This document shows, piece after piece, positions 23,990 to 40,770 of a stretch of 64,000 bases of DNA. Under the pieces are notes generated by a model. That model did no database searches. It was not told the DNA's origin and was given only the letters and a program-made list of their open reading frames with translations. Location of the stretch: positions 1,038,622 to 1,102,621 of the forward strand of contig CAWAGQ010000004.1 in NCBI GenBank assembly GCA_963781585.1, written 5' to 3'. A program made the position numbers and the translations under genes. Each line of letters opens with the position of its first letter. The first letter of the stretch is position 1. This DNA is from an uncultured Gemmatimonadaceae bacterium (GTDB taxonomy: Bacteria; Gemmatimonadota; Gemmatimonadetes; Gemmatimonadales; Gemmatimonadaceae).

Positions 23990-24985
23990 CTACCCTGTGG
24001 ACGCCAGTCGAGCGCCGGGCATGCGCGAAGCGAGCAGCGCGCGAGCATCCGTCGCCGACATTCCGAACACCGCCGTGGCCGCAGCATCCGCGTTCATGCA
24101 GGTTTCGGCCTCAACGGTCACACTGTGCTCCGAGGTCTGCTTTGGCCGGGCGGTGGCCGGATCCATGAGGTGGTGATAACGCACGCCGCGGAACCGGAAG
24201 AACTGGACGTAGTCCCCAGAGGTGGCCACGGCGCGGTCGGAGACGTCCAGCACACCGAGCAGTTCGTCCGGATCAACCGGCGATTGAATACCGATACGCC
24301 AGGGAGAGCCGTCGGGGGCCATCCCCATGGCCACGAGATCGCCGCCGACGTTGATGAGCGCGTCGCGGACGCCCAGGGCACGAAGGGCGTCGGACGCCCG
24401 ATCGACGCCGTACCCCTTGGCGATGCCACCCAGGTCGAGATGGATCTCGGGAGATCGAAACGCGACTGCCGGCTGCCCCCTCTCCATTCCCAGTTCGACG
24501 CCGTGGAAGAGGTGGCGCCCGGCCAGACGACGCACGGGTGCGTCGGGGGGCGGCTCGTACCGGTGGTTCACGTCCCACAGCTCGACCACGCGTCCAATCG
24601 CGGGGTCGAAGGCGCCGTCGCTGGCGTGAGCCCAGCGGAGCGCTGCATCGAGCACGTCGCGGGTCGGACCGGAGACCGCGACCGGCTGGTGGAACGCGAG
24701 GGCGTTGGCCCTGCCCACATCCGACTCGGGGAGGAAGCGACTCATCGTGCGCTCAACGCCCGTCAATTCCGCGAACGCCGCGTCGATGGCGTGCTCGCCC
24801 CTGCCGAAGTCGTCGGCGATCACGGTGATTTCGGCGATGGTCCCCATCACGGGCAGCATGCGGCGGACCGTGCGCCGACGGAAACGAGCCGAGATCGGGA
24901 CCGCGGCGACGACGAACGCGCCGATCCCGATCGCAATGAACTCCCGGCGATGCGTCAACGGGCCGGGTGAAGAGTCGACTGTCAT
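23990..24985 (-). CDS. apbE: FAD:protein FMN transferase (ApbE) with twin-arginine signal
   Basis: HRREFI Tat motif; VMGT, FDPAIG, DLGGIAKGY, NVGGD, ATSGDY, HHLMDP, ADAAATA; ATGA overlap with upstream microprotein. Confidence 0.92.
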   Translation of the reverse strand: MTVDSSPGPLTHRREFIAIGIGAFVVAAVPISARFRRRTVRRMLPVMGTIAEITVIADDFGRGEHAIDAAFAELTGVERTMSRFLPESDVGRANALAFHQPVAVSGPTRDVLDAALRWAHASDGAFDPAIGRVVELWDVNHRYEPPPDAPVRRLAGRHLFHGVELGMERGQPAVAFRSPEIHLDLGGIAKGYGVDRASDALRALGVRDALINVGGDLVAMGMAPDGSPWRIGIQSPVDPDELLGVLDVSDRAVATSGDYVQFFRFRGVRYHHLMDPATARPKQTSEHSVTVEAETCMNADAAATAVFGMSATDARALLASRMPGARLASTG

Positions 24986-25134
24986 TTCGTTCCTCCCTCG
25001 ACGTGCTGGTGCAGCGGGCAATCGCCCTGACACGCGCCGCATCCGCCCGATTCGCAGCCGCGTTGCGGATGCAGCAGACCGAAGACGACAAAGAGCACGG
25101 CGACGAGCGCGATGCCGGCAAGCGCGGTAATCAT
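24982..25134 (-). CDS. 50-aa single-TM Cys-rich membrane microprotein
   Basis: MITALAGIALVAVLFVVFGLLHPQRGCESGGCGACQGDCPLHQHVEGGTK; ATGA overlaps with rnfA stop and apbE start. Confidence 0.7.
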   Translation of the reverse strand: MITALAGIALVAVLFVVFGLLHPQRGCESGGCGACQGDCPLHQHVEGGTK

Positions 25135-25706
25135 GAGGTGCCCAGGCCGGCGAAGCCCATGAAGGCCATGGACAGGCAACTGGCGATGAACAGGACGATG
25201 GCCATCGGGCGTGCGAGCCGCGGCACCTCGGTCAGCTCGGTGCGGACCCGTATGGACGCCATGAGCGTGAGCGCCAAGGTGAGGCCCATCCCGGCGCCGA
25301 TGGCAAAGGCGAGACCCTGGATGAAGTTGTAGCCGCGATTGGTCTGGAAGATGGCGAGACCGAGGATGGCGCAGTTGGTGGTGATGAGGGGCAGGTAGAT
25401 GCCAAGCTGTCGGAAGAGCACCGGATAGTGCTTCCTCACAGCCATCTCGACGATCTGCACTGCCGAGGCGATGACCACGATGAACGCGATGATACGCAGA
25501 AACGGCGCCGGACCGAGCACATACTTGTTCAGGAACCAGGCGGACACGGCCGTCATCACGAGGACGAACGTGTTGGCCAGGCCGAGGCGCAGGGCGGTGC
25601 CGATCTGCTGGGTGACGCCGAAGAAGGAACAAAGCCCGAGAAACATCACCAGCGTGAAGTTGTTCACGAGCAGGGACGAGATCATGATCCACGCCAGATC
25701 ACCCAT
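25131..25706 (-). CDS. rnfA: Rnf complex subunit A
   Basis: LVNNFTLVMFLGLCSFFG, LGIYLPLITTNCAILG, SMAFMGFAG. Confidence 0.95.
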   Translation of the reverse strand: MGDLAWIMISSLLVNNFTLVMFLGLCSFFGVTQQIGTALRLGLANTFVLVMTAVSAWFLNKYVLGPAPFLRIIAFIVVIASAVQIVEMAVRKHYPVLFRQLGIYLPLITTNCAILGLAIFQTNRGYNFIQGLAFAIGAGMGLTLALTLMASIRVRTELTEVPRLARPMAIVLFIASCLSMAFMGFAGLGTS

Positions 25707-26406
25707 TTCCTGTCCTCCCGGATCGCACTGCACGTGCACGCCGCGTGCGCAGGTCGGCTGCGACGGCGACGCCCATGAGCAGCAGGCCAAGCGTGAAGAA
25801 GCCTCCTGGTGGGAGCATCATGAACACCCAGGGCTCGAAGCTGGCGGGCAGGACGCGGATCCCGAGCAGGGCGCCGCTGCCTAACAATTCCCGGATTGCG
25901 CCCATCATGGTCAGCGCGATCGTGAACCCCGCGCCCATGCCGACGGCGTCGAGGACGGCGCGTCCCACCGGCTGCCTGGCGGCGAACGCTTCCTGCCGTC
26001 CCAGCAGCAGGCAGTTCGCGACGATCAGGGCGATGAAGGGGCCAAGCGCCTTGTGAATGTCGGGCACCATCGCCTCCAGCAGCATGTCGGCCAGCGTCAC
26101 GAAGGTGGCGATGATCAGGATGTACGAGGCGATGCGGACCTCGTTCGGAAACCGGCGGCGGAGCAGCGAGACGAAGAATTCCGACCCCAGCAGGACGAAC
26201 AGCGTGGCCATGCCCATGGCGAACGCGTTGGCGACGTTGTTGGTGACCGCCATGGTCGGGCACATGCCGAGCATCTGCACCAGGACCGGGTTCTCCTTCC
26301 AGATGCCGCGCATCAGGTCCCCGATCAGCGGCGCCGGGGTCGTCGACGGTGGCGGCGGCACGGCCGGCGCGGCGACCGGCATTGTGGCGTCGATGGTCGT
26401 GCTCAT
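25699..26406 (-). CDS. rnfE: Rnf complex subunit E
   Basis: ENPVLVQMLGMCPTMAVT, LIVANCLLLGR, IRELLGSG, LPPGGF. Confidence 0.95.
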   Translation of the reverse strand: MSTTIDATMPVAAPAVPPPPSTTPAPLIGDLMRGIWKENPVLVQMLGMCPTMAVTNNVANAFAMGMATLFVLLGSEFFVSLLRRRFPNEVRIASYILIIATFVTLADMLLEAMVPDIHKALGPFIALIVANCLLLGRQEAFAARQPVGRAVLDAVGMGAGFTIALTMMGAIRELLGSGALLGIRVLPASFEPWVFMMLPPGGFFTLGLLLMGVAVAADLRTRRARAVRSGRTGNG

Positions 26407-27077
26407 GGGGTTGCTCCGGCCTGGTACGCCGTCAGCAGCGGGCGCCAGCGGGCAACCGCGTTGTTGATGATCCGGGTGACGGCGCGCGACGAGATCGTGG
26501 CGCCGCTGATCGCCTGCACCTCAGCGGGGTCGTTGCCGCTGCGCTTCTTCACCGTCTTCAGGGGCGCGACCAGGCCGTGCCACTGGCCGACGAACGTGCT
26601 GTCCTTCTCGATCTTCTCCCCGAGACCCGGCGTCTCCTTCTGATCCAGGACCTTGAAGCCGAGAATGGTGCCGCTTCGCGGATCGAAGCCGAACATCAGG
26701 GAGATCACATCGGAGAATCCGGGTTCACCGGCGGTGATCGCCACGCCGAGCGAGTGCCCCTGCGCGTCGTAGCCGACGTAGGCCGCCTGGAGTTCGCTTC
26801 GCGCCACCGTGGGCTGCCTGGTCAACGCGCCGTTCTCCAGATAGAGCGTGTCCAGTCGCGCCGGGTGCTGGAGCACTTCGGCCACGGCCTGCTGGACGAC
26901 CAGTCCCTTGTGCGCCTCGATCGGAGTGAGCGTGAGGCGATACACGATTACCACCAGCAGACCGGCCAGGGCGCCGGCCAGGCCTAACGTGCTCACCAGC
27001 CGCCAGGCCGGCGTCGCTTCGGCCGGGGGAAGTTCGGCCGGAACACCGGGGGTGTGGCAGTGCACCGGGTCGGTCAT
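26403..27077 (-). CDS. rnfG: Rnf complex subunit G (FMN-binding)
   Basis: N-terminal TM, ETPGLG, flavinylation motif ISGATISS; ATGA overlap with rnfD. Confidence 0.92.
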   Translation of the reverse strand: MTDPVHCHTPGVPAELPPAEATPAWRLVSTLGLAGALAGLLVVIVYRLTLTPIEAHKGLVVQQAVAEVLQHPARLDTLYLENGALTRQPTVARSELQAAYVGYDAQGHSLGVAITAGEPGFSDVISLMFGFDPRSGTILGFKVLDQKETPGLGEKIEKDSTFVGQWHGLVAPLKTVKKRSGNDPAEVQAISGATISSRAVTRIINNAVARWRPLLTAYQAGATP

Positions 27078-28072
27078 GCGATGACCCGCCCGGTGGTGCC
27101 GAACACGCGCGGCTGGGTGGCCTTGTTGATGAACGGCGTGAACGCGTTCATGAACAGGATGGCGTACATGACCCCTTCGGGGAGACCTCCCCAGACCCGG
27201 ATCACCACCGTGACCACGCCCACGCCGGCGCCGAAGATCCAGCGCCCCGGGTTGGTCACGGGCGCGGTGACCATGTCGGTGGCCATGAAGATCGCGCCGA
27301 GCGCGAGTCCGCCCGAGAAGAGCATGAACAAGGGCGCCGGATAGGCCGGCGAGAAGGCGTGGAGGATGACCGCGAACGCGGCAATCGACGCGAAGATACT
27401 GACCGGGACACGCCAGTTGAGGTATCCGCGCAATGCCAGGTACGCGCCGCACAGCACGATCACGATCACCGAGGTCTCACCTAACGAGCCGCCGGTGTTC
27501 CCGGTGAACAGGGCCAGCACCGAGGTGCCGTGTCCCTCGAACTTCCAGGCGCCAAGTGGCGTGGCGGCGGTGATGGCTTCCGTCACCCGCGGGTGGGTGA
27601 GGGGGAAGGCGAACAGATCACCCCGCAGCGCCCACCAGGATTGACCGGGAACCGGCCAGGTCGTGATGGCGACCGGAAACGCCGCCTGCAGGAAGGCGCG
27701 TCCGAACAAGGCAGGATTGAAGATGTTCTGGCCCAGACCCCCGAACACGATCTTTCCGAAACCGATTCCCATGGCGCCACCGAGAAACGCCATCCACAAC
27801 GGCATCCCGGCGGGGAGGGTGAGTCCGAGCAGGATGCCGGTGATCGCGGCCGAGCCGTCGGAGAGCGTTCCCGACTTGCCAAAGACGCGCTCGGTCAGCA
27901 TGGCGCCGAGCGTGGCCGCTCCCACCACCAGGAGCGCACTGACCCCGAAATACCACGCCGCAACCACGACGATGGGGATCAGGCTGCCCACGACGTTCCA
28001 CATGATCCGCGGCGTGGACTCGCGCGCGCGGAGGTGCGGCGCGGCGGTGACGACCAGCGAACCGCCGCTCAC
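27074..28072 (-). CDS. rnfD: Rnf complex subunit D
   Basis: APHLR, DGSAAITG, FGGLGQNIFNPA, TAATPL (FMN-Thr), GETS, FMATD, PEGVMYAIL; GTGA overlap with rnfC. Confidence 0.95.
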   Translation of the reverse strand: MSGGSLVVTAAPHLRARESTPRIMWNVVGSLIPIVVVAAWYFGVSALLVVGAATLGAMLTERVFGKSGTLSDGSAAITGILLGLTLPAGMPLWMAFLGGAMGIGFGKIVFGGLGQNIFNPALFGRAFLQAAFPVAITTWPVPGQSWWALRGDLFAFPLTHPRVTEAITAATPLGAWKFEGHGTSVLALFTGNTGGSLGETSVIVIVLCGAYLALRGYLNWRVPVSIFASIAAFAVILHAFSPAYPAPLFMLFSGGLALGAIFMATDMVTAPVTNPGRWIFGAGVGVVTVVIRVWGGLPEGVMYAILFMNAFTPFINKATQPRVFGTTGRVIA

Positions 28073-29400
28073 GCGGCCGCCGCCTTGCGCTTCTTCAGCG
28101 CGGTCCTGCTGAACGCGAACAGCTGGGCGAGCGGGATGTTCGAGGGGCACACATAGGAGCACGCGCCACAGAGCATGCAATCGGCCAGGTGCAGCGCCTC
28201 CATGTCGTCATACCGGTTCAGCCGCGCGTAGTCGCCGAGCAGCGAGGGATTCAGGAACACCGGGCAGGCATCCAGACAGTTGCCGCAGTGGATGCAGGGG
28301 TAGATCTGTTCGCTGCGTGTCTCGTCGCCAGCCAGGGCCACGATGCCCGTGGTCCCCTTGGTGACCGGCGCGTCGAGGGAGCTCTGGGCCAGGCCCATCA
28401 TCGGGCCGCCGATGATGACTTCGGCCGCGTCGTCGGTGAGCCCTCCACAGAACTCCAGCACGTCACGCAGCCTGGTCCCCACCGGGACGATCAGGTTTCC
28501 GGGCTTCCGCACGCCACGGCCGCTCACGGTGACGATGCGTTCGATGAGCGGCATCCCGGTCTCGAAGACCTCGGCGATGGCCGCCACCGACCCGACATTC
28601 TGGACCAGCACGCCCAGGCTCACCGGCAGCTTGCCCGACGGCACCTCGCGACCGGTGACGGCGCGAATCAGCATCTTCTCCGCCCCCTGCGGATACTTCA
28701 CGGTCAGGGGGAGGATCGTCACGTCCAGGTCGGTGGGTGCCGACGCGCGCAGCGCCTCGATCGCGTCGGGCTTGTTGCGCTCCACACCGATCACCGTGCG
28801 CCGTACACCTAACGCGGCCATCATCACGCGGATGCCGAAGTGCACCCGGGCGGGGTACTCCGCCATGATGCGGTGATCGGATGTGAGATATGGCTCGCAC
28901 TCGGCGCCGTTGACGATGATCGACTCGACCGCGTACTCCTTCGGCGGCGAGAGCTTCACGTGGGTGGGGAAGGCCGCACCACCCAGCCCGACCACGCCCG
29001 CCTCCTGAACGGCAAGAACCGTCTGTTCGGTGGTCAAACCTTCCCACCTCGGCACCAGGCGTGGACGCGTGGTCTGTACCGCATACCGATCGACGGCGAT
29101 CCGCACCGCCATGGTATCGGTCCCGTCGATGTAGGGGGCCCACTCGATCGCGGTGACTCGTCCCGCGGCCGACGCATGGATGGGCACCGACATCCAGCCA
29201 TCGGACGTGCCGACCTTGTCGCCGCGTTCGACATGGTCGCCGGGCTTCACACAGGCGATGGCGGGCTTCCCGGCATGCTGCTGGAGCGGCAACACCAGCT
29301 CCGCCGGGAACGGCATCCGGCGAATCGGGAGCGTGTTGGTGAGTTCCTTGGATTCGGGAGGATGAACCCCGTGCTGGAAGCCGAACCGTGAGAGCAGCAT
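28069..29400 (-). CDS. rnfC: Rnf complex subunit C
   Basis: HGVHPPESK, GVVGLGGAAFPTHVKL, NGAECEPYL, YPQGAEK, GGPMMG, two CxxCxxCxxxCP motifs. Confidence 0.96.
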   Translation of the reverse strand: MLLSRFGFQHGVHPPESKELTNTLPIRRMPFPAELVLPLQQHAGKPAIACVKPGDHVERGDKVGTSDGWMSVPIHASAAGRVTAIEWAPYIDGTDTMAVRIAVDRYAVQTTRPRLVPRWEGLTTEQTVLAVQEAGVVGLGGAAFPTHVKLSPPKEYAVESIIVNGAECEPYLTSDHRIMAEYPARVHFGIRVMMAALGVRRTVIGVERNKPDAIEALRASAPTDLDVTILPLTVKYPQGAEKMLIRAVTGREVPSGKLPVSLGVLVQNVGSVAAIAEVFETGMPLIERIVTVSGRGVRKPGNLIVPVGTRLRDVLEFCGGLTDDAAEVIIGGPMMGLAQSSLDAPVTKGTTGIVALAGDETRSEQIYPCIHCGNCLDACPVFLNPSLLGDYARLNRYDDMEALHLADCMLCGACSYVCPSNIPLAQLFAFSRTALKKRKAAAA

Positions 29401-29404
29401 GTGA

Positions 29405-32400
29405 TCAGCTGAAGGGCTTGGCCCGCTCGATCCACTTCGGGAGATCCTTCTCCTTCGGGTTGAGCGGCGTTCCGGGGTGAATGGCGGCGACGGGGCACTT
29501 CTCGGCGGCCTGCACCAGCTGCGCGAACGTGCCGGCCTTTGCGTCCTTCACATACGCCTGCTTGTTCGCGTTGTAGGCGAACATGCGTCCGTTGAGATTC
29601 GTGCATTCGTTGCAGGTCGTGCACCGCGCCGACTCGACGTAGGCCTCCATCGCCAGGTCGTCGTCCTCCTGGGGTTGCGCAGGCGGCGCCGCCGCGGCCG
29701 CGGCGACGGCACCGTCCGCGCGGTGTGCGGTTTCCGGACCGGCCTCGGAAGACGCGTGAGACGCCGTGACGCCCGCACCGTTCGACCCGGAGGCCGCGTC
29801 CGGGGCTAGCGCGCTCCCCGAAGGGATGGCACTCGGTGCGGGCGCTGATACGGCATCGGAAACCAGATCGTTCGCCACGCCGGTGGCGAAACGGGACAGC
29901 AACTCGGTTGCGGCATGCGGGCCACCCGCGCTCCGCAGCAGCCCCTGGGCGAGACGCCGAGCAATCAACGGCGGGTAGCTCGCACGCAGGTCGGCCAGCT
30001 TCTTTTCGTACTCGCTGCGCAGCTCCTGCACCTGCCGATCGAAGTCCGACTCGACCGCGGACAGTACGCGCTCGCGAATGGCGGGCGCGACCTCCAGACC
30101 GGCGAGCTGGCGCAACTGCGACCAGAACAGGAGCCGTTCTTCCGCGAGTTGCACCATTTCGGCCGAGACCGCGAGCCGGCGGAGCCGCTTCTCTCCGGTG
30201 GTCGCCCAGATGAAGGGCGACTTCCCCGCTCTCTCGTCAGGCGCGAGGGCAACGTACTCGTGGAACGGCAGCATCTCGTCGTTCCAGGCGGCGTGCTTCA
30301 CTTCCCGGAAGTGCTTCCGGAAGCGTCCCTCGGTGGCCGCCCAGTCGGCGATGGTGAGCGGAAGGTCCATGCTGCCTGGGGCGCCGTCGTCGTCGGCATA
30401 GTGCAGGGTGTACGACGGCCACAGATCGTCGACGGCCGGATTGCCGTCGAGCGTGAGGCAGTCGGCCAGCGCGCCACCTGCGTCGGGATCGTAGGTCAGG
30501 AAGGGGAATGCCCGACTCTCGAGCGCCAGACGGGCGGCGTGCTGACCCCAGTCGTCGGCCAGCCCGTGCTCCACCGGACACGGCGTGTAGATGTTGAACA
30601 CCGCCGGCCGGCGCTGCTGCAGACCACGCAGGATGCCGCCCATGAGATGCGACGCCGAGGCCTGCGACGACTGGTGCACGAACACGCCGCGGTGCGCGAT
30701 GGCAATGAGGGCGAGTTCCTTCCGCACTTCGGTCTTGCCATGCTGCACCGCGCCATAAGCGGACATGTCGGCCACCTGACCCGTGAAACCACTGGTGCAC
30801 GCCTGTCCGCCGGTGTTCGAGTAGACCTGGGTGTCGAGGACGACCACCCGCAGCGGCTTTCCGGAGGCGAGCAGCCGCGAGAGGTTCTGGAAGCCGATAT
30901 CGAGCATGGCGCCATCGCCACCCATGGTGACGATGGGCGGGCACATGGCGAATTCCTCATCGGTGAACTGCTGCCAACCGACGGCGACGAATTCCTTCTC
31001 ATGCGTGGCCGCGTCGTAGGCGTCGTTGGCCAGCAGCTCGGCCCGTCGCACGCTCACGAACTGGTCGGCCATCTTGCGCATCTGCCCTTCGAAGACGCCG
31101 ATCGCCACCGACGGGGCGTCCTGGAAGAGGTGGTTCACCCACGGGAAGGGGTATGGATTGTACGGGTAGGTACTGCCCCACACCGACGAGCACCCGGTGC
31201 TGTTGGCCATGCCCAGGCGCGCCCTTCCCTTCCCAGCCGGCCCCTCCAGGTAGCGCCACCGAAGATCCTTGAGCTCGTCGATCGCCCGAGCGAGCAGCGC
31301 GAGGCGCTTCCGACGATCCTCATCAACCGGAACGGTGACTTCCCCAGCGGGGGCCTGACCGGCCGCGCGCAGATCGGCGCTGGAGGCGAGCAACTCGCGG
31401 GCCTTGGCGTCGAGGGTCGCGATGAGCGAATCGAGCCGCGCCACGTACCGCTCGACGCGCGGACCCATCAGCGCGTGGATCGTCGACGTGACCAGGTGGA
31501 CGGTCGTCTTTTCCCCGCAGCCCATGCAGGCGCCGTCGCCGCCCACCATCGACCGGTAGCTGTTCTTCTTGAGCAGCAACGACGGAAGCACGCCGACACC
31601 TTCGTCGATGCGCGAGACGTTCACGTACCGGTCGTCGGTGTCGGGAAGCTGCTTCCAGAATTCCCAGTTGCGGCGAAGTCGCGCGAGCTTGTCGTCGTCC
31701 TGCCGCACGGTTACGAGGGCCTGATCGGGGCAGACGGCGACACACAGGTTGCAGCCCTTGCAGGCCTCGGGGTTCACGGTGATGGAGAGGAGCCCGCCGC
31801 TCGCCTTTGCCTTGCTCTCGGGCAGATCGTAGAACGGTCGCGTGCGCGCAAAGCGCATCTCGGCTATGGTGGCGTGCACCGGCTCGAACTCGGCATCGAC
31901 AGCGACCCGACGCTCGGGCTCTGTGACGAGTTTTCCGGCAACGGTGTCGTAGGCGCGTCGCAGCGCGGTCGCGAAGTCCACGGAGGGATCACCGGCCATG
32001 ACGCGTCGCGACTCCTTGCTGACAGGCTTGACCAGCTGCCGCAGGCGATCCAGCGGCGCACGCTGGCGCTCGGCGACGTCGATTGCGGAGCCAAGCGTGT
32101 CTTCGACGCCGGTCACGAGCCCCGGGATGGCAGCGTCGGGACATTGGGTCCAGCACTGCGCGCAGCCCGTGCACTTTTCCGCAATGAAGTCGGGTATCTC
32201 CATCCGCACACCGCTCATGTCGCGCACGGCGCCGGTGGCGGCGGGGATGGCGCTGATGGCGGCGAACGGATCGGCGATCACGTCCTGGGAGAGCTTGCAG
32301 ACGGCGCAGACCTGCTCCCAGAACCGTCCCGGGTTGCCGATGCCCTGTTCCGCGTCAGGCACGTCGAGCACGTCAGGAATAGCCGGGACCGCTCCGTTCT

Positions 32401-34543
32401 CGTGGGCGTGGTCCGGCAGATCGACCGCGTCGACACCCACCACCTCGTCGTAGCCGCGGCGGATGACGCGCAGGTTGTCTTCCACCACCTGCGCGCCACG
32501 ATGTCCGAACTTCTTGTCGAGCTGCTGGTGGATGCCGTCGAAGAGCGCCGCTTCGCTGCCGCCCTCCCGCTCCAGCAGCGGCGAGACCCGGAAGAAGGCG
32601 CCGAGGAACGCCGCGCCCTGCATCCGGTAGCGCAGGTCGGCATCGGAGGCTTCGGCGGCGGCGATGCGAAAGGCGTCGATGACATAGGTGCGAATTCCGC
32701 GGCGTCGGATTTCGGCACGCGCCCCGGGCGGCAGGGTCGCCCATGCCGCAACCGGCTCCAGCTCGCTCTGCAGCACGAAGACGCCGCCGTCGGCCAACCC
32801 CGCCAGAGGATCCGAGTGGCGGAAGACGTTCGGATCGGGGGCGAGCACGACGTCGACGTGTTTCAACTCGCCATTGAGGCGAATCGGCTCATGTGCGAGC
32901 GTGGCGTAGAAGGTGGTGGGTTGTCCCTTCTTCTCGGATCCGTATTTCGGGTTGGCCTTGATGTGCATCCCGAACAGCTCGAAGGCGGTCATCGACAGGT
33001 TCTTGCCCATCGTGATCGCGCCCCAGCCGCCCACCGAGTGAATGCGCACGGACGTCGAGTTCTTCGGCATCAGGTTGAAGTCACCGGCCGACTTGAGCGC
33101 GAGATCTTCGATGTCCGGGTACGCTTCGATCAGCTGCTCCTGCCAGATCTGGAGCTTGGGCAGGCGCGTGTCCCGGCGAATGAAGTCGATACCGAGGTAG
33201 AACTGGCGGCGCCGCTCCGCGCGGGCCGCGGGCAGCATATTCTCGACCGCGGCGATCACGTCGCCAGGCTGCAGGTCGCGGCTGCCGAGGCCGAAGCACC
33301 CGGAGTAGCAGTCGGGGATGTCGTCCGGGGCGATCAGCTGGATGCCCGGATGCGGCACGCTCACGCCTCGAGCGCGGAAGTTCTCGTGGCCTTTCGACAG
33401 CGCGGCGCGGATCTCGCGCAGCAACGGGAGATCGACCGCCAGCGGCTGGTCGGTCCGTTCCAGCACCACCACGCCCTTCTTGCCGCGAAGCAGGCGTGAG
33501 ATCAGGTCGGCGGGGAACGGCCGGAACATGGTGAGGTTGACCACGCCGACGCGGAGCTGTCGGGTTTCCCGCAGGAAGTCGGCGACCGCTTCGGCGTTGG
33601 CCACGAGCGAACCCTGTCCTACGATGAGATACTCCGCATCGTCGGTGCGGTATCCGGTGGCACGCGCATAACGACGCCCGGTCAGAGTGGCGAATTCGGC
33701 CATGGCGCGGTCAGTCAGATCCGCCAGGTGCTCGAAATAGAACGGGCGCTGGGCGGCGACCCCCTGGGCATAACTGTCCTGGTTCTGCACCACGCCGAGC
33801 ATGGCCGGGTGGTCGAGATCGAACATCTCCGGAATGCGACGGCGTTTCGCGCCGAAGACGAGGCGCTGTGCGGGCGTCGGCGCGTCGATGAAATCGGCCG
33901 GGCTCCCGAGGAACTCACGCACCAAGTCGCGTTCGGGGAGCCGGATCGACTCGATGACGTGACTGGTCAGGAAGCCGTCCTGGGCGCAGATCCCCGGGTT
34001 GAGCGACAGTTCGGCGATGCGGTGCGCGATGAGATTGAGGTCGGCGCTCTCCTGGACGTCCTTGGCGAAGAGCTGGAAGAATCCGGAGTCGTCGACGGCG
34101 TGGTAGTCGTCGTGGCCGGCGTGGACGTTGAGCGCGTGCTTGGTGAGCGCCCGAGCAGCCACGTTGAGGACGTAGGTGAGTCGCTTTCCGACAGCCGGGT
34201 AGAGCGATTCGTGCATGTACACGATGCCCTGTCCGCTGGAGAAGTTCGTCGCCCGCATACCGGTCATGCTCATGCCGGCGGTAACGGCGGCGGCGGCGTG
34301 CTCGCCCTCGGGCTCGAAGAAGAGGAGGCGGCGGCCGAACACGTTGGTCTTGCCCTCGGCCACCGCGGCCGCCCACCCTTCGCCCATCTGTGTGGAGGGG
34401 GTGATGGGATATGCTCCGGCGGCTTCGCTGGCCGCGGTCTCCATCGCCACGACGGCGGCAGATCCGTCCATCGCCTCGACAACGCCCGGATAGCGAGGCG
34501 GTGCCGCCGCTGGTTCGCTGGTCTTTCCCGGCCAGATCTTCAT
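29405..34543 (-). CDS. nifJ: Large single-chain pyruvate:ferredoxin oxidoreductase (NifJ/PFOR type, ~1712 aa) with an extra C-terminal ferredoxin domain
   Basis: YPITPST, EGEHAAA, VAARAL, FRPFP, GLGSRD, two 4Fe-4S motifs, GACMGCGE, NSTGCSSVWG, GGDG...VYSNTGGQ TPP motif, terminal CTTCNEC...CP; start ATG 34543 overlaps rnfB stop (ATGA). Substrate assignment inferred. Confidence 0.88.
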   Translation of the reverse strand: MKIWPGKTSEPAAAPPRYPGVVEAMDGSAAVVAMETAASEAAGAYPITPSTQMGEGWAAAVAEGKTNVFGRRLLFFEPEGEHAAAAVTAGMSMTGMRATNFSSGQGIVYMHESLYPAVGKRLTYVLNVAARALTKHALNVHAGHDDYHAVDDSGFFQLFAKDVQESADLNLIAHRIAELSLNPGICAQDGFLTSHVIESIRLPERDLVREFLGSPADFIDAPTPAQRLVFGAKRRRIPEMFDLDHPAMLGVVQNQDSYAQGVAAQRPFYFEHLADLTDRAMAEFATLTGRRYARATGYRTDDAEYLIVGQGSLVANAEAVADFLRETRQLRVGVVNLTMFRPFPADLISRLLRGKKGVVVLERTDQPLAVDLPLLREIRAALSKGHENFRARGVSVPHPGIQLIAPDDIPDCYSGCFGLGSRDLQPGDVIAAVENMLPAARAERRRQFYLGIDFIRRDTRLPKLQIWQEQLIEAYPDIEDLALKSAGDFNLMPKNSTSVRIHSVGGWGAITMGKNLSMTAFELFGMHIKANPKYGSEKKGQPTTFYATLAHEPIRLNGELKHVDVVLAPDPNVFRHSDPLAGLADGGVFVLQSELEPVAAWATLPPGARAEIRRRGIRTYVIDAFRIAAAEASDADLRYRMQGAAFLGAFFRVSPLLEREGGSEAALFDGIHQQLDKKFGHRGAQVVEDNLRVIRRGYDEVVGVDAVDLPDHAHENGAVPAIPDVLDVPDAEQGIGNPGRFWEQVCAVCKLSQDVIADPFAAISAIPAATGAVRDMSGVRMEIPDFIAEKCTGCAQCWTQCPDAAIPGLVTGVEDTLGSAIDVAERQRAPLDRLRQLVKPVSKESRRVMAGDPSVDFATALRRAYDTVAGKLVTEPERRVAVDAEFEPVHATIAEMRFARTRPFYDLPESKAKASGGLLSITVNPEACKGCNLCVAVCPDQALVTVRQDDDKLARLRRNWEFWKQLPDTDDRYVNVSRIDEGVGVLPSLLLKKNSYRSMVGGDGACMGCGEKTTVHLVTSTIHALMGPRVERYVARLDSLIATLDAKARELLASSADLRAAGQAPAGEVTVPVDEDRRKRLALLARAIDELKDLRWRYLEGPAGKGRARLGMANSTGCSSVWGSTYPYNPYPFPWVNHLFQDAPSVAIGVFEGQMRKMADQFVSVRRAELLANDAYDAATHEKEFVAVGWQQFTDEEFAMCPPIVTMGGDGAMLDIGFQNLSRLLASGKPLRVVVLDTQVYSNTGGQACTSGFTGQVADMSAYGAVQHGKTEVRKELALIAIAHRGVFVHQSSQASASHLMGGILRGLQQRRPAVFNIYTPCPVEHGLADDWGQHAARLALESRAFPFLTYDPDAGGALADCLTLDGNPAVDDLWPSYTLHYADDDGAPGSMDLPLTIADWAATEGRFRKHFREVKHAAWNDEMLPFHEYVALAPDERAGKSPFIWATTGEKRLRRLAVSAEMVQLAEERLLFWSQLRQLAGLEVAPAIRERVLSAVESDFDRQVQELRSEYEKKLADLRASYPPLIARRLAQGLLRSAGGPHAATELLSRFATGVANDLVSDAVSAPAPSAIPSGSALAPDAASGSNGAGVTASHASSEAGPETAHRADGAVAAAAAAPPAQPQEDDDLAMEAYVESARCTTCNECTNLNGRMFAYNANKQAYVKDAKAGTFAQLVQAAEKCPVAAIHPGTPLNPKEKDLPKWIERAKPFS

Positions 34544-35379
34544 GCGTGCGCGCTCCCGACGAGACTGTCCTGACTGACGAACTGCGCCCGGTCGAGCCAG
34601 ACGATCGCGCCGGTGGGACAGCGCTCGACGGCGCGTGGGTCCTCGAGTTCGACCTTCGAGTAGTCGATCACGGCGACGCCGGTGGCGACCGAAACCAGAC
34701 CGACCGCGGCATCGACGACGCACTTGCCGCAGGCGGTACAGGCGACGCGGCAATCCTCGAGGATGTCGTCCCCGACGCGCAGGTTGCGGCACTGCACCAG
34801 CAGGTGGTGATCGACGGGCATGATGGTAAACAGGTCCTTGGGGCAGGCATCGACGCAGTCGCCACAAGCCGTGCACTTGTCGACGTCGACCACCGGCAGG
34901 CCCATGTCGTTCATCGCGATCGCATCGAAGTCGCACACCCGCGCGCAGTCGCCCAGGCCGAGACAGCCCCAGGCACAGCCCTTGGCGCCGCTGGCCACGG
35001 CGGCGGCCGCCGCGCAGGTGCGCACGCCGCGATACTCGGCGCGGGCAAAGGCGACGTCGGACCCACCCGCGCAGTGCAGTCGCGCGACCCGCTTCACGGC
35101 CGTGCCGGCATCGACGCCGAGAAACGCGGCGATGCCGGCGATGCCCTCGGCGTTGGACACGGTGCACTGGGCGGGCTGGATGGTGCCCGCGACAGCCTGC
35201 TCGGCGAACGCCCGGCATCCCGGCAGGCCGCACGCGCCGCAGTTGGCGTTAGGCAGCATGGCGGCGACCGCGTCGATGCGCGGGTCCTCGTACACCCGGA
35301 GGCGCCGGTACGCGGCGGCAATCAGGCCGCCGAAGACCAGGCCCACGCCGCCGAGGATCGCGATCGCCAGGAGAATCAT
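34540..35379 (-). CDS. rnfB: Rnf complex subunit B
   Basis: N-terminal TM, LPNANCGACGLPGC, CAWGCLGLGDCARVC, CTACGDCVDACP, further Fe-S cysteines. Confidence 0.93.
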   Translation of the reverse strand: MILLAIAILGGVGLVFGGLIAAAYRRLRVYEDPRIDAVAAMLPNANCGACGLPGCRAFAEQAVAGTIQPAQCTVSNAEGIAGIAAFLGVDAGTAVKRVARLHCAGGSDVAFARAEYRGVRTCAAAAAVASGAKGCAWGCLGLGDCARVCDFDAIAMNDMGLPVVDVDKCTACGDCVDACPKDLFTIMPVDHHLLVQCRNLRVGDDILEDCRVACTACGKCVVDAAVGLVSVATGVAVIDYSKVELEDPRAVERCPTGAIVWLDRAQFVSQDSLVGSAHA

Positions 35380-35392
35380 TGCCGGTCGCCCC

Positions 35393-36463
35393 TCACGAAT
35401 CGCCGAGCCGGGACTGGGCCAGCAACCAGGACGCCAGCCGATCCACTGCATCATCGCTGCCCGCGTCGGTCACCGCTTCGGCCGGAAGCGGCGGCGCGAG
35501 CGGGGCGGCGGCCAGCGCCTCGAGTTGCCCCAGATCTTCCTGCATCTGCCAGACACTCGCTCCCCCGATCGTCCTTTCCGGTGCGACGCCGGTTCGCCAG
35601 ACCGACAGACGCTGCCAGGCTTCGCGCCCACGAGCGGGATCGTGGAGGAAGCACGCCGCGCCGTCGGGCACGATCGCGGCAATGCCGGGCCCCGCGCTGG
35701 TGGCCAGGAGATCCAGTCCGGTCGCGTCTCCGGTCTGCAGCACCAGAGCGCCCGGGGTGACCAGGCGAACGAGGGGCGCCGGTGGGCACGGTTCCTCCAC
35801 CACGAGCACCAGCTTCTCGCGCCCGTCCATGAAGGTCGCGAGCTCGCCCGCGCGAAGGTCGGCACCGCCGACCAGCACGATCAGCGGCGGCGCATACCGT
35901 CGCTCCGTCCTGGTCCACGAGCGGAAGGCAAGTACGTCCAGCAGCCGATCGTGCTCGGCAGGAACGAACGCACCGCTGCGAATGAGTTCGATCGACAGCA
36001 GCGCGCCGAAGGCGCGACCCAGGCGGGACAGCGCGGCTTCCACGACTGCGCCGATCGAATCTCCCGGCGACACCCGGGCCAGGAACAGATCGTCGCCGTG
36101 CACCAACATCGAGCGCAGCGTGTCGACGGCGCGCTCCAATCGCTCACGCTGATCGTCGGACAACGGCGGCAGTGCGTCGAACAGATGCGTGAACACCGCC
36201 GGATCCACGCGCCCTGCCGCGAAGTGTCCCAGCTCGCGGGCCATGCGCTGGCGGCGGGCGTCGTCGCCCGACATCCGCGCCAGGCTGAGCGCCTCGGCCT
36301 GTTCCAGCGCCCCCGCCAGCGCGGCCCGGAATTCCGCGACCGGCCGGGCGAGCGCGTCGAACGCCAGCCGCAGGCGCTGTCTCGCGCTGCCCGATCCGTT
36401 GTCGGCGGATGCGCCAAGCGCGTCCAGCGCGGCCGAGACGAGTGACGTTGCGTCAGACCGCAT
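35393..36463 (-). CDS. Hypothetical protein; degenerate paralogue of the PFOR TPP-binding (beta) domain
   Basis: By-eye alignment with the adjacent PFOR C-terminal domain (see findings); lacks GDG motif and Fe-S cysteines. Confidence 0.7.
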   Translation of the reverse strand: MRSDATSLVSAALDALGASADNGSGSARQRLRLAFDALARPVAEFRAALAGALEQAEALSLARMSGDDARRQRMARELGHFAAGRVDPAVFTHLFDALPPLSDDQRERLERAVDTLRSMLVHGDDLFLARVSPGDSIGAVVEAALSRLGRAFGALLSIELIRSGAFVPAEHDRLLDVLAFRSWTRTERRYAPPLIVLVGGADLRAGELATFMDGREKLVLVVEEPCPPAPLVRLVTPGALVLQTGDATGLDLLATSAGPGIAAIVPDGAACFLHDPARGREAWQRLSVWRTGVAPERTIGGASVWQMQEDLGQLEALAAAPLAPPLPAEAVTDAGSDDAVDRLASWLLAQSRLGDS

Positions 36464-37403
36464 AGCGATCGAGCTCCGCTTCCAGCAGAGAGAGACGTTC
36501 GTCGGCTGACCTGGGCGCCACCCGGCGGAGATCTTCGTACCGCTCCCGCGTAGGATCGCGATAGAAGAGCCCCAGGCGGATGGAGTCGGTGGGTTCGGCG
36601 AGGCGCCGCGCCGCGTCGAGATCGCGCGGATCGTGCACCAGGCGTTGCTTGTAGATGCCTTCGATCTCCGGAGCGGCCACGCCCGCGTCGTGCACCAGCA
36701 GCTCCACCAGCGCCGGCTTCTTCACGGCCTCGGCGTAGATGCCCGGCGTGTAGACGGGACAGCGCTGGAGGATGCGCACGAACGACAGGCCACGATGCCG
36801 GTATGCGGCCCGCAACGTGGCGTAGAGATGGGCGGGAACGAACTCGGCCGTCTGCGCCACGAACGAGGCGTTGGTGACGCCTAACGCTACCGTCAACGGA
36901 TTGAGCGACGGCAGGTACGAACCGCGGGGCTGGGTGTTGCTCGGCAGCCCGCGGGGCGTGGTCGGCGAGGTCTGGTTCTTGGTCAGGCCGTAGATGCCGT
37001 TGTCGAGCAGCATCACGGTCAGGTCCGGATTGTAGCGAAGGGCGTGAACCCAGTGCGCGGCGCCGATCGAACAGCAGTCCCCGTCGCCCATGACGACAAA
37101 CACGTCGAGGTCGGGGCGGTGCAGCTTGATGCCGGTCGCCACCGGCAGCGCCCGACCGTGGATGCCGTGAAAACCGTAGGTCTTGAGATAGTGCGGGAAG
37201 CGGCTGGAGCAGCCGATGCCGGACACGAACACCGTCGTCTCGGGTCGCAGCTGTTCGGACGTGAGCAGCTTTTCCACGGCCGTGAGCACGGAATGATCGC
37301 CACACCCCGGGCACCATCGCGCCCGCGCGCCCTCGTAGTCGCTCAACTCGAAGTGGCGATCATCGTCGTCGGCGAAGAGCAGACCACACTGCAGCTCGTT
37401 CAT
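36453..37403 (-). CDS. korB: 2-oxoacid:ferredoxin oxidoreductase beta subunit
   Basis: WCPGCGD, SGIGCSSR, HGRALP, GDGD...NGIYGLTKNQ, QRCP; ATGA overlap with alpha. Confidence 0.92.
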   Translation of the reverse strand: MNELQCGLLFADDDDRHFELSDYEGARARWCPGCGDHSVLTAVEKLLTSEQLRPETTVFVSGIGCSSRFPHYLKTYGFHGIHGRALPVATGIKLHRPDLDVFVVMGDGDCCSIGAAHWVHALRYNPDLTVMLLDNGIYGLTKNQTSPTTPRGLPSNTQPRGSYLPSLNPLTVALGVTNASFVAQTAEFVPAHLYATLRAAYRHRGLSFVRILQRCPVYTPGIYAEAVKKPALVELLVHDAGVAAPEIEGIYKQRLVHDPRDLDAARRLAEPTDSIRLGLFYRDPTRERYEDLRRVAPRSADERLSLLEAELDRYAV

Positions 37404-39316
37404 CGTCCGGCCTCCCCACCGCGCGTCGTTCGGGCGCGAATCGTGTCCAGGATCGCTGCCGGACGGAGCGGCTCGCCGGGGACCCGCGTCCAGCAATCGA
37501 CGTCCACCAGGGTGCTCGCCCGCAGCAGGGTACAGAGTTGTCCGCGCCGCCGGTTCTCCTCGGTGACATAGGGATCGCCCGACTGGTCGCTGTAGTTGAG
37601 TTCGACCGTCAGGACGTCGCGGAAGCGCGCGAAGATCTCCTTTAGCCCAGGCTCCAGTGGCGACAGGAACCGAAGGTGGACCGCGGACACGGCGATGCCG
37701 CTGTCGCGCGCGCGGTCCACGGCTTCCTCGATCGCCCCTTTCGTGCTTCCCCACCCCACGATCAACAGGTCGCCTGCATCGTCGCCATGGATTTCAGGCG
37801 GCCGCAGCATGGACTGCAGCACCGCCAGCTTCCGGCTTCGCATCGTGCTCGCACGCTGATGCACGCCGGCGCTGTACGCGACTTTGCTCCCTTCGTCGTG
37901 CGAGAGGCCCGTAAGCGTGTGCAGACCGCCGATCTGTCCCGGAATGAACCGGCGCGACAGCCCGGTGGCCGGGTCCCAGTCATACGGGCGCTTGCCATCC
38001 GGCACGCGGCCCAGGTCGAGCGGCGGCGCCTGCCAGGCAGTGTCGAGCACCGGACGCGGGAAGGGTTGCACGCCGGTGGCGAGGTTCGCGTCGGAGAGGA
38101 CGACTACGACGGTGCGGAACGCCTCGGCGAGCCGCCGCGCGGTAACCATCACGTGGAAGCACTCTTCGATGGTCGCCGGGGCGATGACGATGCGCGGCGC
38201 GTCGCCAGGCTGGCCGAACAGGGCCGCGAGCAGATCCGACTGCTCCACCTTGGTAGGAAGGCCGGTGCTCGGACCGCCGCGCTGCACGTCGACCACCACG
38301 AGCGGCACTTCGGTCATCACCGCGAGACCGATGAATTCCGTCTTGAGCGCGAGGCCCGGACCCGACGTCACCGTAAAGGCCACCTTGCCGGCGTAGGACG
38401 CGCCGATGGCGACCCCGGCGGCGGCGATCTCGTCTTCGGCCTGGTGCACCACGCCGCCGAACTTCTCGAACACCTCGCCCAGGTAGTGCGAGACCGACGT
38501 CGCGGGCGTGATGGGGTACATGGCGCAGAGTTCGAGTCCGGCAGCGATCGCACCCATTCCGAGCGCCTCGTTACCGTTCATCACCACCATCGCCTTGTCG
38601 CTGGGCACGGGTGGCACATCGATCCGGAAATCGAGGTGCGCCGCCGCCCAGTGAACCCCGAGGCGCACCAGGTCCACGTTGCGCCGGTACACGTCGTCGG
38701 ACTTCTTGCGAAAGGCGTGCGCGATCTGCTCGTCGATTCGCTCCAGGTCCCGCCCGTAGATCCAGGCGAGAATACCGAGCGCGAACATGTTCTTGCCCTT
38801 GCGCGGATTATCGACCAGCGTCAGGCACTCTTCCTCCATCGGGACGGGGATGATGCGGTAATGGTGTCCCGAGAGTTCCTCCATCGCGGCTGACCAGGCG
38901 GCGCGGATGGACTCGTCGTCGTGCGTAGCCCAGCGGTCTTCCAGCAGAATCACCGCGTCCTCAGCCAGCGCGCCGAGACGGTGCCTTGCCAGCAGCACCT
39001 GTTCATTGAAGGCGACAACGAGGTTGGTGTGGTCGCCCCAGTTGGTCACGGCGCCGGTGCCGAGGCGGATCCGGATGCCGCTGGCGCCTTCAGGAGCGCG
39101 GGGCGGGGGCTGGATTTCGGCGGGGATGATCTCGACAGTCCAGACGCCATTCCCCGTCTTCGCCGACACGGCGCCGAAGATCTGGCCGCATTTCTGCGCG
39201 CCTTCGCCCGAGTCGGAGACAATTTCCACCGTGTGTTCGCGAACGCGCGTCGCCGGCGGCGCGTCTGGAGCCGCCATTGCATCGTTCGACAGCACGGTTT
39301 CGGAAAGCACAGGCAC
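37400..39316 (-). CDS. korA: 2-oxoacid:acceptor oxidoreductase alpha subunit (gamma-alpha fusion)
   Basis: DSGEGAQ, PAEIQ, MNGNEA, YPITPAT, QAEDEIAA, TSGPGLALK, QRGGPSTGLPTK, GWGST; start uncertain (39277-39364). Confidence 0.92.
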   Translation of the reverse strand: MPVLSETVLSNDAMAAPDAPPATRVREHTVEIVSDSGEGAQKCGQIFGAVSAKTGNGVWTVEIIPAEIQPPPRAPEGASGIRIRLGTGAVTNWGDHTNLVVAFNEQVLLARHRLGALAEDAVILLEDRWATHDDESIRAAWSAAMEELSGHHYRIIPVPMEEECLTLVDNPRKGKNMFALGILAWIYGRDLERIDEQIAHAFRKKSDDVYRRNVDLVRLGVHWAAAHLDFRIDVPPVPSDKAMVVMNGNEALGMGAIAAGLELCAMYPITPATSVSHYLGEVFEKFGGVVHQAEDEIAAAGVAIGASYAGKVAFTVTSGPGLALKTEFIGLAVMTEVPLVVVDVQRGGPSTGLPTKVEQSDLLAALFGQPGDAPRIVIAPATIEECFHVMVTARRLAEAFRTVVVVLSDANLATGVQPFPRPVLDTAWQAPPLDLGRVPDGKRPYDWDPATGLSRRFIPGQIGGLHTLTGLSHDEGSKVAYSAGVHQRASTMRSRKLAVLQSMLRPPEIHGDDAGDLLIVGWGSTKGAIEEAVDRARDSGIAVSAVHLRFLSPLEPGLKEIFARFRDVLTVELNYSDQSGDPYVTEENRRRGQLCTLLRASTLVDVDCWTRVPGEPLRPAAILDTIRARTTRGGEAGR

Positions 39317-39588
39317 GCGTCGCCCCCCCTTCCGGGGTTGAGCCAATGGAGGGCAGGGGCACACGAGCGCCCAGTGGAAGCGGCCTTGCCACTGGCGTGA
39401 TCTCTTGCCGGAACCGGGCGACCGTCCTCACCTGTCGGGTGAACGACGAGCTCCAGCACCGTTGGGCGAACCATAGGCCGCCACGGAGAAGGGCGTCTGT
39501 AGGGGACGCGCCGATGGAATGCGAGGGATCGTCGGTCAGCCGCGTGTCAGGCAATCGCTGACGCGCCGAGCGCGCCTACCGACCCGCG

Positions 39589-40770
39589 TCAGACCGGCGC
39601 GAGGGACCGCTGGCGCACGCGCCCCGCCCGGCTCGCCGCTTCGCGCAGCCGCTCTGGTGAGGTGATGAATGAGACGCGGAAGAAGCCTTCACCGCCGGAC
39701 CCGAACCCCGAGCCGGGAAGCACGATCACGCCTTCCTCCTCGAGCAGGCGCTCGGCGAACAGCGCGCTCGGCACGCCGTCGGGAACCGGGATCCAGAGGT
39801 ACATCGTGGCCCGGGGCGCGTCGCAGGAGAAGCCCGCGGCGCGAAACGCAGCGACCGCCGCGTCCCGTCGCTCGCGGAAGACGCGCAGATTCCCGGGCAC
39901 GAATTCCGCCCAACTCTCGAGCGCGGCGACCGCGGCGTACTGGATCCCCATGTACGCGCCGGTGTCCACGAACGACTTCACACGGGCGAGGGCGCCACAG
40001 AGCTCCGGATTGCCGATCGCCCATCCGCAGCGCCAGCCGGTCATGTTGTAGGTCTTGCTGAGCGAGTGAAACTCGATCGCCACCTCGCGTGCTCCGTCGA
40101 TCTCGAAGATGCTCGGCGGCAGATAGCCGTCGTAGGCCATCTCCGAGTAGGCGTTGTCGTACGCAAGGATGATGTCGCGCTCGCGACAGCGCCGGACGAC
40201 GTCAGCGAGATACTCACGCGGTGCGACCGCGGCGGTCGGATTGTTGGGATAGTTCAGGTAGAGGACGCGCGTGCGGCGGAGGACCTCGTCGGGAACGGCA
40301 TCGAGGTCGACGAGGAAGTTCGTGGCCGGGCGCAGGGGAAAGGAATACACCTCGGCGTCGGACAGGAGGGTGCCGCCGGCGTAGGCCATATAGCCCGGCT
40401 CGGGCACGACGGCCGCGTCGCCGCGCTGCAGATACGCGAACGCGAGGTGGGCGATTCCTTCCTTGGATCCGATCAGCGGCACCACTTCGCGGAGAGGATC
40501 GAAGGTGAGGCCGAAGCGGGTCTTCGTCCAGGAGACGATTGCTTCCCGGAATGGCACGTAGCCCAGCCCGAAGCCATAGCGGCCTAACGATGGCAGCTCC
40601 GCGGCGCGCGCGAGGGCCTCGATGGCGGCCGGCGGCGGCGCCAGGTCGGCGTCCCCGGCGCCCAGGTCGATGACATCCACGCCCTTCGCAAGCAGTTCGC
40701 GTTTGCGCTGGGGAATGTGCGCCAGCGGATACGGCGGGAGCGCGGTGAAACGGCTGGTCTGAGGCGGCAT
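39589..40770 (-). CDS. Class I/II PLP aminotransferase (LL-diaminopimelate aminotransferase/AlaC-like)
   Basis: IDLGAGD, GSKEG, LNYPNNPT, DNAYSE, SLSKTYNMTGWR PLP-lysine motif. Confidence 0.88.
   Translation of the reverse strand: MPPQTSRFTALPPYPLAHIPQRKRELLAKGVDVIDLGAGDADLAPPPAAIEALARAAELPSLGRYGFGLGYVPFREAIVSWTKTRFGLTFDPLREVVPLIGSKEGIAHLAFAYLQRGDAAVVPEPGYMAYAGGTLLSDAEVYSFPLRPATNFLVDLDAVPDEVLRRTRVLYLNYPNNPTAAVAPREYLADVVRRCRERDIILAYDNAYSEMAYDGYLPPSIFEIDGAREVAIEFHSLSKTYNMTGWRCGWAIGNPELCGALARVKSFVDTGAYMGIQYAAVAALESWAEFVPGNLRVFRERRDAAVAAFRAAGFSCDAPRATMYLWIPVPDGVPSALFAERLLEEEGVIVLPGSGFGSGGEGFFRVSFITSPERLREAASRAGRVRQRSLAPV

Follow-up and report, generated by a model that had tools for sequence, protein, structure and literature searches.

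Domain VI of pyruvate:ferredoxin oxidoreductase (PFOR) is the thiamine diphosphate (ThDP, also TPP)-binding "PP" domain of the enzyme and is equivalent to the beta subunit of the 2-oxoacid:ferredoxin oxidoreductases (OFORs). As represented by the homodimeric PFOR structures of M. thermoacetica (6CIN, 6CIO, 6CIP and 6CIQ) and D. africanus (1B0P and 2C3Y) and by 7PLM, this domain is the closest known system to the product of gene X, a minus-strand gene in the 64,000-nucleotide stretch of DNA analyzed here (the window), from contig CAWAGQ010000004.1 of an uncultured Gemmatimonadaceae bacterium. X differs from domain VI in being a separate protein of 356 amino acids (aa) rather than part of a chain of 1,200–1,700 aa; in X the GDG motif has degenerated, deletions have removed the YSNTGGQ loop as well as the helix that separates the TPCP strand from the YDP motif, the cluster cysteines are absent, and the chain has a C-terminal linker and helix of its own. 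The beta subunits of multi-subunit OFORs, including those of oxalate oxidoreductase (5C4I, 5EXD and 5EXE), PorB (9BT4), KorB of 2-oxoglutarate:ferredoxin oxidoreductase (OGOR, 6N2N), StOFOR (5B48) and OorB (8YS5), bind both ThDP and a [4Fe-4S] cluster, whereas X, judging from its residues, would bind neither. No account of X or of a korA-korB-X-rnfB-PFOR-rnf operon turned up in searches of the literature; the available text of 10.64898/2026.09.02.748891 concerns a five-subunit oxygen-tolerant Por/Oor, and Rnf is not mentioned in the available passages of PMC11316326. In X, a well-known domain apparently takes a new form, stand-alone and non-catalytic, within an oxidoreductase–Rnf operon that seems to be undescribed.

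We propose, with a probability of roughly 55%, that X is a catalytically dead protein descended from PFOR domain VI that serves as a non-catalytic structural or accessory subunit of the oxidoreductase–Rnf module. X retains the domain fold in its predicted structure, has lost the cofactor sites, and is kept by purifying selection as a fixed part of the module.

X is a divergent homolog of the ThDP-binding domain of PFOR

The open reading frame (ORF) of gene X, a stand-alone degenerate PFOR domain VI (pseudo-beta subunit), occupies 36463–35393 on the minus strand and encodes 356 aa, with limits (35393–36463) exactly as read beforehand. Its product matched no family in Pfam (E ≤ 0.1) or NCBIfam (E ≤ 0.01). 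In a BLASTP comparison with the neighboring PFOR, residues 132–199 of X aligned with the stretch just ahead of the GDG motif (30 bits, 24% identity, E = 4e-4 for the single comparison). Alignments were built of 49 X family members (A1) and of seven long PFORs, that of the window and those of six other genomes (A2), and their comparison by hhalign gave 151 aligned columns at a probability of 60% and an E value of 8.7e-5, pairing X residues 142–291 (35591..36040, minus strand) with PFOR residues 1150–1367, numbered by the first row of A2, which begins at Ile3. The alignment scored 47.1, above the reversed PFOR alignment (18.3) and all 120 shuffled controls (60 column shuffles, mean 18.2, maximum 26.4; 60 block shuffles, mean 19.6, maximum 27.8). 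The similarity to domain VI of PFOR is thus significant at the profile level, and three short alignments made by eye in the first-pass annotation (LGRAFGA/MADQFVS, ALVLQT/VFVHQS and CFLHDP/PFLTYDP) all fall inside this one collinear alignment. The X profile also weakly matched the cluster PFOR in four other genomes (per-genome E values of 3.5e-5 in G222, 8.2e-5 in G065, 5.8e-4 in G389 and 7.9e-4 in G311), and hhalign aligned the X family with the single degenerate PFOR of a Planctomycetota locus (L039, described below) at E = 6.4e-4.

The relationship is to the fused PFOR type rather than to the KorB type, since the X profile does not resemble the neighboring KorB (hhalign probability 0.7%), and an origin of X from KorB was rejected on this basis. 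A search of the ESM Atlas gave a best score of 0.84, below lead level, and its STAND NTPase clusters were disregarded.

The predicted structure leads to the same family. The AlphaFold2 model of X computed from A1 has a pLDDT of 88.9 and a pTM of 0.82, and when it was compared with the Protein Data Bank (PDB) by Foldseek, ranks 1–10 were all PFOR chains (best E 1.2e-3, with low TM-scores) and nearly all rows beyond rank 10 were ThDP enzymes. The structural alignment pairs residues 1–319/321 of the model with residues 785–1170 of the PFOR chain. Because helical bundles crowd the Foldseek list of the full model, residues 125–325 were also folded alone (A4, pLDDT 89.5), and PFOR again came first (E 0.085). 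The model places an alpha/beta domain with the ThDP PP-domain fold at residues 128–320 (35504..36082, minus strand). It is preceded by a predicted N-terminal helical region at residues ~24–127 (36083..36394, minus strand; DSSP helices in the model), which superposes on the N-terminal part of PFOR domain VI without significant sequence similarity. Neither end of X could be related to PFOR by hhalign: the N-terminal helices scored 15.7 against the PFOR-specific helical insertion (shuffle maximum 19.6), and the C-terminal tail scored 11.9 against the PFOR tail (shuffle maximum 14.2), neither being significant.

It might be argued that the likeness to PFOR is due to chance or to a generic Rossmann-like fold and that X is an unrelated conserved hypothetical protein, as the Foldseek E values above 1e-3, the low TM-scores, an hhalign probability of just 60%, the lack of a Pfam match and an hmmsearch of PDB sequences that finds no PFOR would allow. 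We consider this very unlikely, given that three independent methods choose the same target, which is the neighbor of X itself; that the profile score lies about 10 standard deviations over the shuffles; that the lower Foldseek ranks are mostly other ThDP enzymes; and that the 151-column collinear alignment takes in both the PP...GDG strand and the YDP motif. The identification of X as a divergent, degenerate homolog of the TPP-binding domain VI of PFOR is well supported by sequence profile and fold together, and bears out the first-pass description of X as a dead copy of this domain.

The ThDP and iron-sulfur cluster sites of X are lost

Residues 198–203 of X (VGGADL; 35855..35872, minus strand) are the remnant of the GDG ThDP/Mg motif. 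In the hhalign alignment V-G-G-A-D-L faces G-D-G-A-M-L of PFOR, which places G199 opposite the PFOR aspartate. Position 199 is variable across the 49 family members (D 24, A 7, N 5, E 4, G 3, Q 3, S 2 and R 1), and D202, three residues on, is invariant (49/49). The YSNTGGQ loop of PFOR falls in a gap in X, and the helix between the TPC (TPCP) strand and YDP is likewise deleted. X does carry a family motif, F-x-H-D-P, at residues 272–276 (FLHDP; 35636..35650, minus strand), which aligns with FLTYDP of PFOR and is strongly conserved (F 47/49, H 47/49, D 46/49 and P 48/49). In the window PFOR, the four Cys ligands of the proximal [4Fe-4S] cluster are provided by the CxxC, TGCSS and TPC motifs. 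X has two cysteines, C226 and C271, both of them non-conserved (Cys in 30/49 and 3/49 members, respectively), and five of the 49 family members contain no cysteine.

X therefore lacks both the ThDP/Mg motif (GDG ... N, with YSNTGGQ in PFOR) and the ligands of the cluster. As the Mg/diphosphate loop and all of the proximal [4Fe-4S] ligands have been lost, X is predicted to be able neither to bind ThDP in the ancestral way nor to carry electrons. The absence of GDG, YSNTGGQ and the cluster cysteines, reported beforehand for X, is confirmed in the form of GGAD at the GDG site, a deleted loop and two non-conserved cysteines. One correction applies: the position of the GDG aspartate, Gly in the window, is still Asp in 24/49 family members.

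Conserved features of the X body and C-terminal helix

A1 contains 13 invariant and 35 nearly invariant columns over its 49 sequences. The best-conserved residues of X follow the C-terminal ends of predicted strands (xGAD, DG, PPAPLxR, LQT, GP and AxFxHDP), and in the model these strand ends form the old cofactor crevice. In ThDP enzymes, the partner's Pyr domain lies over the cofactor crevice. The second conserved element is the predicted helix at residues 339–350 (LA-x-WLL; 35414..35449, minus strand), in which W346 and L347 are invariant in 49/49 sequences. It is preceded by an Ala/Pro-rich linker with low model confidence (pLDDT 53–69) and a length that varies in A1. A linker followed by a short helix bearing W346-L347 would be the layout of a tethered docking peptide, for which this helix is a candidate. 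Conservation of the crevice together with the tethered helix leads us to favor an adaptor or scaffold, with the body placed on one redox protein and the tail on another.

The main rival to this explanation is that X has been neo-functionalized, with its remodeled crevice binding a small molecule such as CoA/acyl-CoA, a nucleotide or a 2-oxoacid, so that X would be a sensor or regulator of the module or a new enzyme. Invariant or nearly invariant polar residues do lie after the C-terminal strand ends, where PP domains bind the diphosphate (G200-A201-D202 after the strand 194–199, P228-A229...R233 after 217–223, Q243 within 240–244, and H274-D275-P276 after 271–274), and half of the family retains Asp at the GDG position. 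We nevertheless regard this alternative as improbable: the diphosphate/Mg loop is deleted in X, no ligand-binding family or motif was matched in Pfam or NCBIfam, and, the crevice being the Pyr-domain interface in ThDP enzymes, conservation is equally expected for a protein–protein interface.

X is widespread, syntenic and under purifying selection

X had been labeled an orphan at first pass, which was not borne out. The family comprises 94 clusters at 90% identity, all of about 280–390 aa and all annotated as hypothetical, with named members from Gemmatimonadota and one from Planctomycetes; at 50% identity there are 591 representatives with E ≤ 1e-3, and 329 of these have E ≤ 1e-30. No relative was found when metagenomes were scanned with P0099, the most divergent member. 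Across 401 Gemmatimonadota genomes, X is present in 76, belonging to 42 of 148 genera, an ortholog of the long PFOR (at least 57% identity to the 561-aa piece of PFOR used as query) in 78, and an ortholog of RnfC (at least 62% identity) in 77. All three occur together in 75 of the 76 genomes with X. Among the exceptions, X stands at a contig end in G109 and the PFOR at a contig start in G295 and G385. In family f10, 13/13 sampled genomes lack both X and the long PFOR and have a different type of RnfC (41–44% identity), so that Rnf operons of two kinds occur in the phylum. By Pfam and NCBIfam, X has no homology to the Rnf subunits (RnfA–E and RnfG) with whose genes it co-occurs.

Gene order is conserved as well. 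At 36/36 loci, from 34 genomes, both korB and rnfB are no more than 1.5 kb away from X, the order korA-korB-X-rnfB-PFOR is found at 6/6 wider loci, and the module is also present at 3/3 of the loci examined in Planctomycetota metagenome-assembled genomes (MAGs). In G389 the module is split within the PFOR gene on one contig (L044 and L045), with korA-korB-X-rnfB-PFOR(6–670) at 1.33 Mb and PFOR(736–1550)-rnfCDGEA-apbE at 2.13 Mb, reflecting either a rearrangement or a misassembly. X matches are split or contain stops in a few genomes (G238, G337, G302 and G323). The PFOR and RnfC matches of G238 and G337 are broken likewise, which could reflect a broken module or indel-rich assemblies.

The ratio of nonsynonymous to synonymous substitution rates (dN/dS) was estimated by NG86 for the 213 pairs with dS(X) of 0.02–1.0; since dS saturates near 0.7, only the closest pairs are quoted. 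In five close pairs with clean neighbor data, the values for X, korB and rnfB were 0.052, 0.041 and 0.058 (L023–L028), 0.085, 0.041 and 0.095 (L002–L005), 0.119, 0.081 and 0.138 (L015–L017), 0.143, 0.079 and 0.099 (L018–L022), and 0.292, 0.120 and 0.174 (L007–L012), giving ranges of 0.05–0.29 for X, 0.04–0.12 for korB and 0.06–0.17 for rnfB. Rows for L025 (korB) and for L008 and L030 (rnfB) were ignored as wrong-frame or truncated extractions (omega > 1.5), and the median dN/dS of rnfB is undefined. X is under purifying selection and is not decaying, and the relaxed selection that would mark a decaying duplicate is not seen. X is the fastest-evolving gene of the module, with 36–52% identity at the wider loci where its neighbors have 58–76%. 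Evolutionary rates covary among the three genes, with partial r values of 0.56 for X and rnfB given korB, 0.40 for X and korB given rnfB, and 0.41 for korB and rnfB given X; as the pairs are not independent, this is a faint lead toward RnfB as the partner of X.

That X is a duplicate on its way to becoming a pseudogene, without function, might be suspected from the loss of all cofactor ligands and from its standing as the fastest-evolving sequence in the cluster. This idea is already contradicted by selection and distribution, and we give it next to no weight: dN/dS in the close pairs resembles that of rnfB, the matches are full length and free of internal stops in most of the 76 genomes, the neighbors are broken too in at least G238 and G337 among the few genomes with split or stop-containing X, and the family extends over two phyla with 591 representatives at 50% identity. 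X thus combines homology to an enzyme family and loss of the cofactor residues with purifying selection and wide conservation, as is characteristic of pseudoenzymes.

Organization of the oxidoreductase–Rnf module

The module consists of 11 genes in the order korA-korB-X-rnfB-PFOR-rnfC-D-G-E-A-apbE (23990–39364, minus strand). The window thus contains a complete Rnf operon with apbE, in which the PFOR gene sits between rnfB and rnfC and korA-korB-X stands ahead. The first gene, korA (37400..39364, minus strand; ORF limits, the true start being uncertain), encodes the gamma-alpha fusion of a two-subunit 2-oxoacid:ferredoxin oxidoreductase (Pfam POR, POR_N and PFOR_II) and scores 526 bits against TIGR03710, over the cut-off. 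Its partner korB (36453..37403, minus strand) encodes the ThDP-binding beta subunit, in which GDG is present (Pfam TPP_enzyme_C and PFO_beta_C). Downstream of X lie the gene for an rnfB-like membrane-anchored polyferredoxin (34540..35379, minus strand, with the start set from the X/rnfB junction; Pfam FeS (PF04060) and Fer4, NCBIfam RnfB models) and that for a long PFOR of ~1712 aa (29405..34543, minus strand; Pfam POR_N, PFOR_II, POR, Fer4, TPP_enzyme_C and a C-terminal Fer4_13). The remaining genes, all on the minus strand, are rnfC (28069..29400; Pfam RnfC_N, Complex1_51K, SLBB and Fer4), rnfD (27074..28180, ORF limits; NQR2_RnfD_RnfE), rnfG (26403..27452, ORF limits; FMN_bind), rnfE (25699..26406; Rnf-Nqr), rnfA (25131..25790, ORF limits; Rnf-Nqr) and apbE, for a flavin transferase (23990..25042; ApbE). 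The continuation of the cluster into a complete rnfCDGEA-apbE had gone unmentioned at first pass. An aminotransferase gene (39589–40770) lies directly upstream of the module on the same strand.

The junctions around X are tight. The korA/korB and rnfB/PFOR junctions are both ATGA overlaps, the korB stop and the ATG of X overlap by 11 nt (ATGCGGTCTGA), and the TGA of X is followed by a 13-nt spacer containing GAGGGG and then by the ATG of rnfB. These junctions and the synteny agree with the first-pass reading of an intact 356-aa ORF coupled between korB and rnfB. The G+C content of the window is high, about 0.65–0.74, and long spurious ORFs are therefore plentiful, the genuine genes of the module region all being on the minus strand. 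Spurious ORFs run across X at 34820–36445(+) and 35881–37317(-), and a 1942-aa ORF represents the PFOR with a spurious upstream extension of 231 codons (35233–34544) that overlaps rnfB in another frame. A scan of 23500–41000 for promoters and terminators gave 0 promoter-like and 2 terminator-like sites, under the shuffle expectation, and was uninformative.

The long PFOR and its degenerate counterpart

The long PFOR scores 403 bits against TIGR02176, for which the cut-off is 911. It aligns with the solved PFORs 6cin and 1b0p at CxxC, TGCSS, GDG...YSNTGGQ, TPC and YDP, and relative to these structures it has a helical insertion of ~87 residues in domain VI, between CxxC and TGCSS. Its chain ends in a low-complexity linker followed by a tethered C-terminal Fer4_13 ferredoxin domain. 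Because the ThDP and Fe-S motifs, including the cluster Cys, are invariant in 7/7 long PFORs, the window enzyme looks catalytically competent as far as its motifs can tell.

A different picture is presented by the PFOR encoded between rnfB and rnfC in a Planctomycetota MAG (L039:12035-16702), which is 35% identical to the window PFOR. This protein has lost the Glu context of the Pyr domain, the GDG motif (which reads GDH) and YSNTGGQ, and retains CxxC, the two domain-V clusters and the tethered ferredoxin; it reads FVHDP, as in the X motif, and X is still present upstream. The loss of the ThDP motifs from a PFOR whose clusters, ferredoxin and accompanying X all persist suggests that what the module conserves is the electron connection between KorAB and Rnf and not the chemistry of pyruvate.

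The reverse case, a long PFOR without X, is provided by G136 (one contig, 99% complete), in which neither X nor an RnfC ortholog was found. Its stand-alone PFOR is 67.5% identical over residues 6–1527 and is without the C-terminal ferredoxin part, and no korAB, X or rnf gene was found in the 19.5-kb locus that contains it (L037, C1:3924000-3943500). This genome bears on the possibility that X is a transient assembly or maturation factor, a mimic of domain VI that would shield newly made KorA or PFOR at the Pyr- or ferredoxin-domain surface pending insertion of ThDP and Fe-S clusters, and that would be absent from the mature complex. A domain-VI-like fold without cofactors, evolution faster than that of the catalytic subunits and the existence of a PFOR core without X would all suit such a factor. 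The strict korB-X-rnfB position and the tight junctions instead suggest co-translation in step with the structural genes, X accompanies the L039 PFOR, for which ThDP insertion is moot, and Pfam and NCBIfam show no likeness of X to the known maturation factors for Fe-S clusters or ThDP. We judge a maturation role to be unlikely, a little more so than binding of a small ligand.

A proposed role for X in the module

In the favored explanation, in which X is an accessory subunit of the oxidoreductase–Rnf module, the conserved crevice at the former cofactor site (xGAD, PPAPLxR, LQT and FxHDP) would bind a partner in the manner in which domain VI packs on the Pyr domain or the ferredoxin domain. Candidate partners are KorA, the long PFOR (through domain I or V) and RnfB; at first pass X had been suggested to dimerize with PFOR or to dock KorAB onto the PFOR/RnfB assembly. 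The conserved C-terminal helix on its flexible linker would dock a second component, and X would thereby help to keep the oxidoreductases together with the membrane Rnf complex as a single assembly for electron transfer.

Several results weigh against this explanation. Among the invariant residues, many (D202, R233, Q243, H274, D275, R285, S303 and Q306) have polar or charged side chains, as compatible with a ligand-binding or catalytic site as with an interface. The rate of evolution of X is about double that of its neighbors (mean distance 0.85, vs 0.40 for korB and 0.46 for rnfB), and the long PFOR of G136 indicates that the PFOR core does not need X. The A1 profile found no PFOR among PDB sequences, returning only repeat and designed proteins (E 0.006–0.4), and Pfam TPP_enzyme_C (PF02775) does not match X at E ≤ 0.1. 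Finally, single-sequence and A1-profile searches found no fused or longer (Rosetta-stone) forms of X, although this is weak evidence.

A more specific form of the accessory-subunit explanation, which we put forward tentatively and at odds well below even, is that X acts as docking subunit in a hard-wired supercomplex, with KorAB, as a two-subunit 2-oxoglutarate/2-oxoacid oxidoreductase, and the long PFOR with its tethered ferredoxin both mounted directly on the Rnf pump. The dead domain-VI body would then sit on one enzyme and the WLL helix on RnfB or RnfC, and the transfer of low-potential electrons between 2-oxoacid chemistry and NAD+/ion-motive force would need no free ferredoxin.

Prozyme-type pseudoenzymes, such as the trypanosomatid AdoMetDC prozyme, are dead paralogs that partner an active paralog. 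Like these, X is a dead paralog under selection that is encoded beside active relatives. It is unlike them in being a single domain excised from a multidomain enzyme.

With these results a conserved family that no Pfam or NCBIfam model covers acquires a fold, an origin and a role that can be tested, and the known pseudoenzymes are joined by a dead ThDP domain that stands alone. The results also point to an apparently undescribed type of operon, found in two phyla, in which a complete Rnf complex is genetically tied to two 2-oxoacid:ferredoxin oxidoreductases. In these largely aerobic lineages the supercomplex, if true, could make it possible for Rnf to power reductive carboxylation or for the oxidation of 2-oxoacids to pump ions. 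If X is the physical link, it would represent a new way to couple central carbon metabolism to an ion pump and would also explain how oxygen-exposed bacteria handle low-potential electrons.

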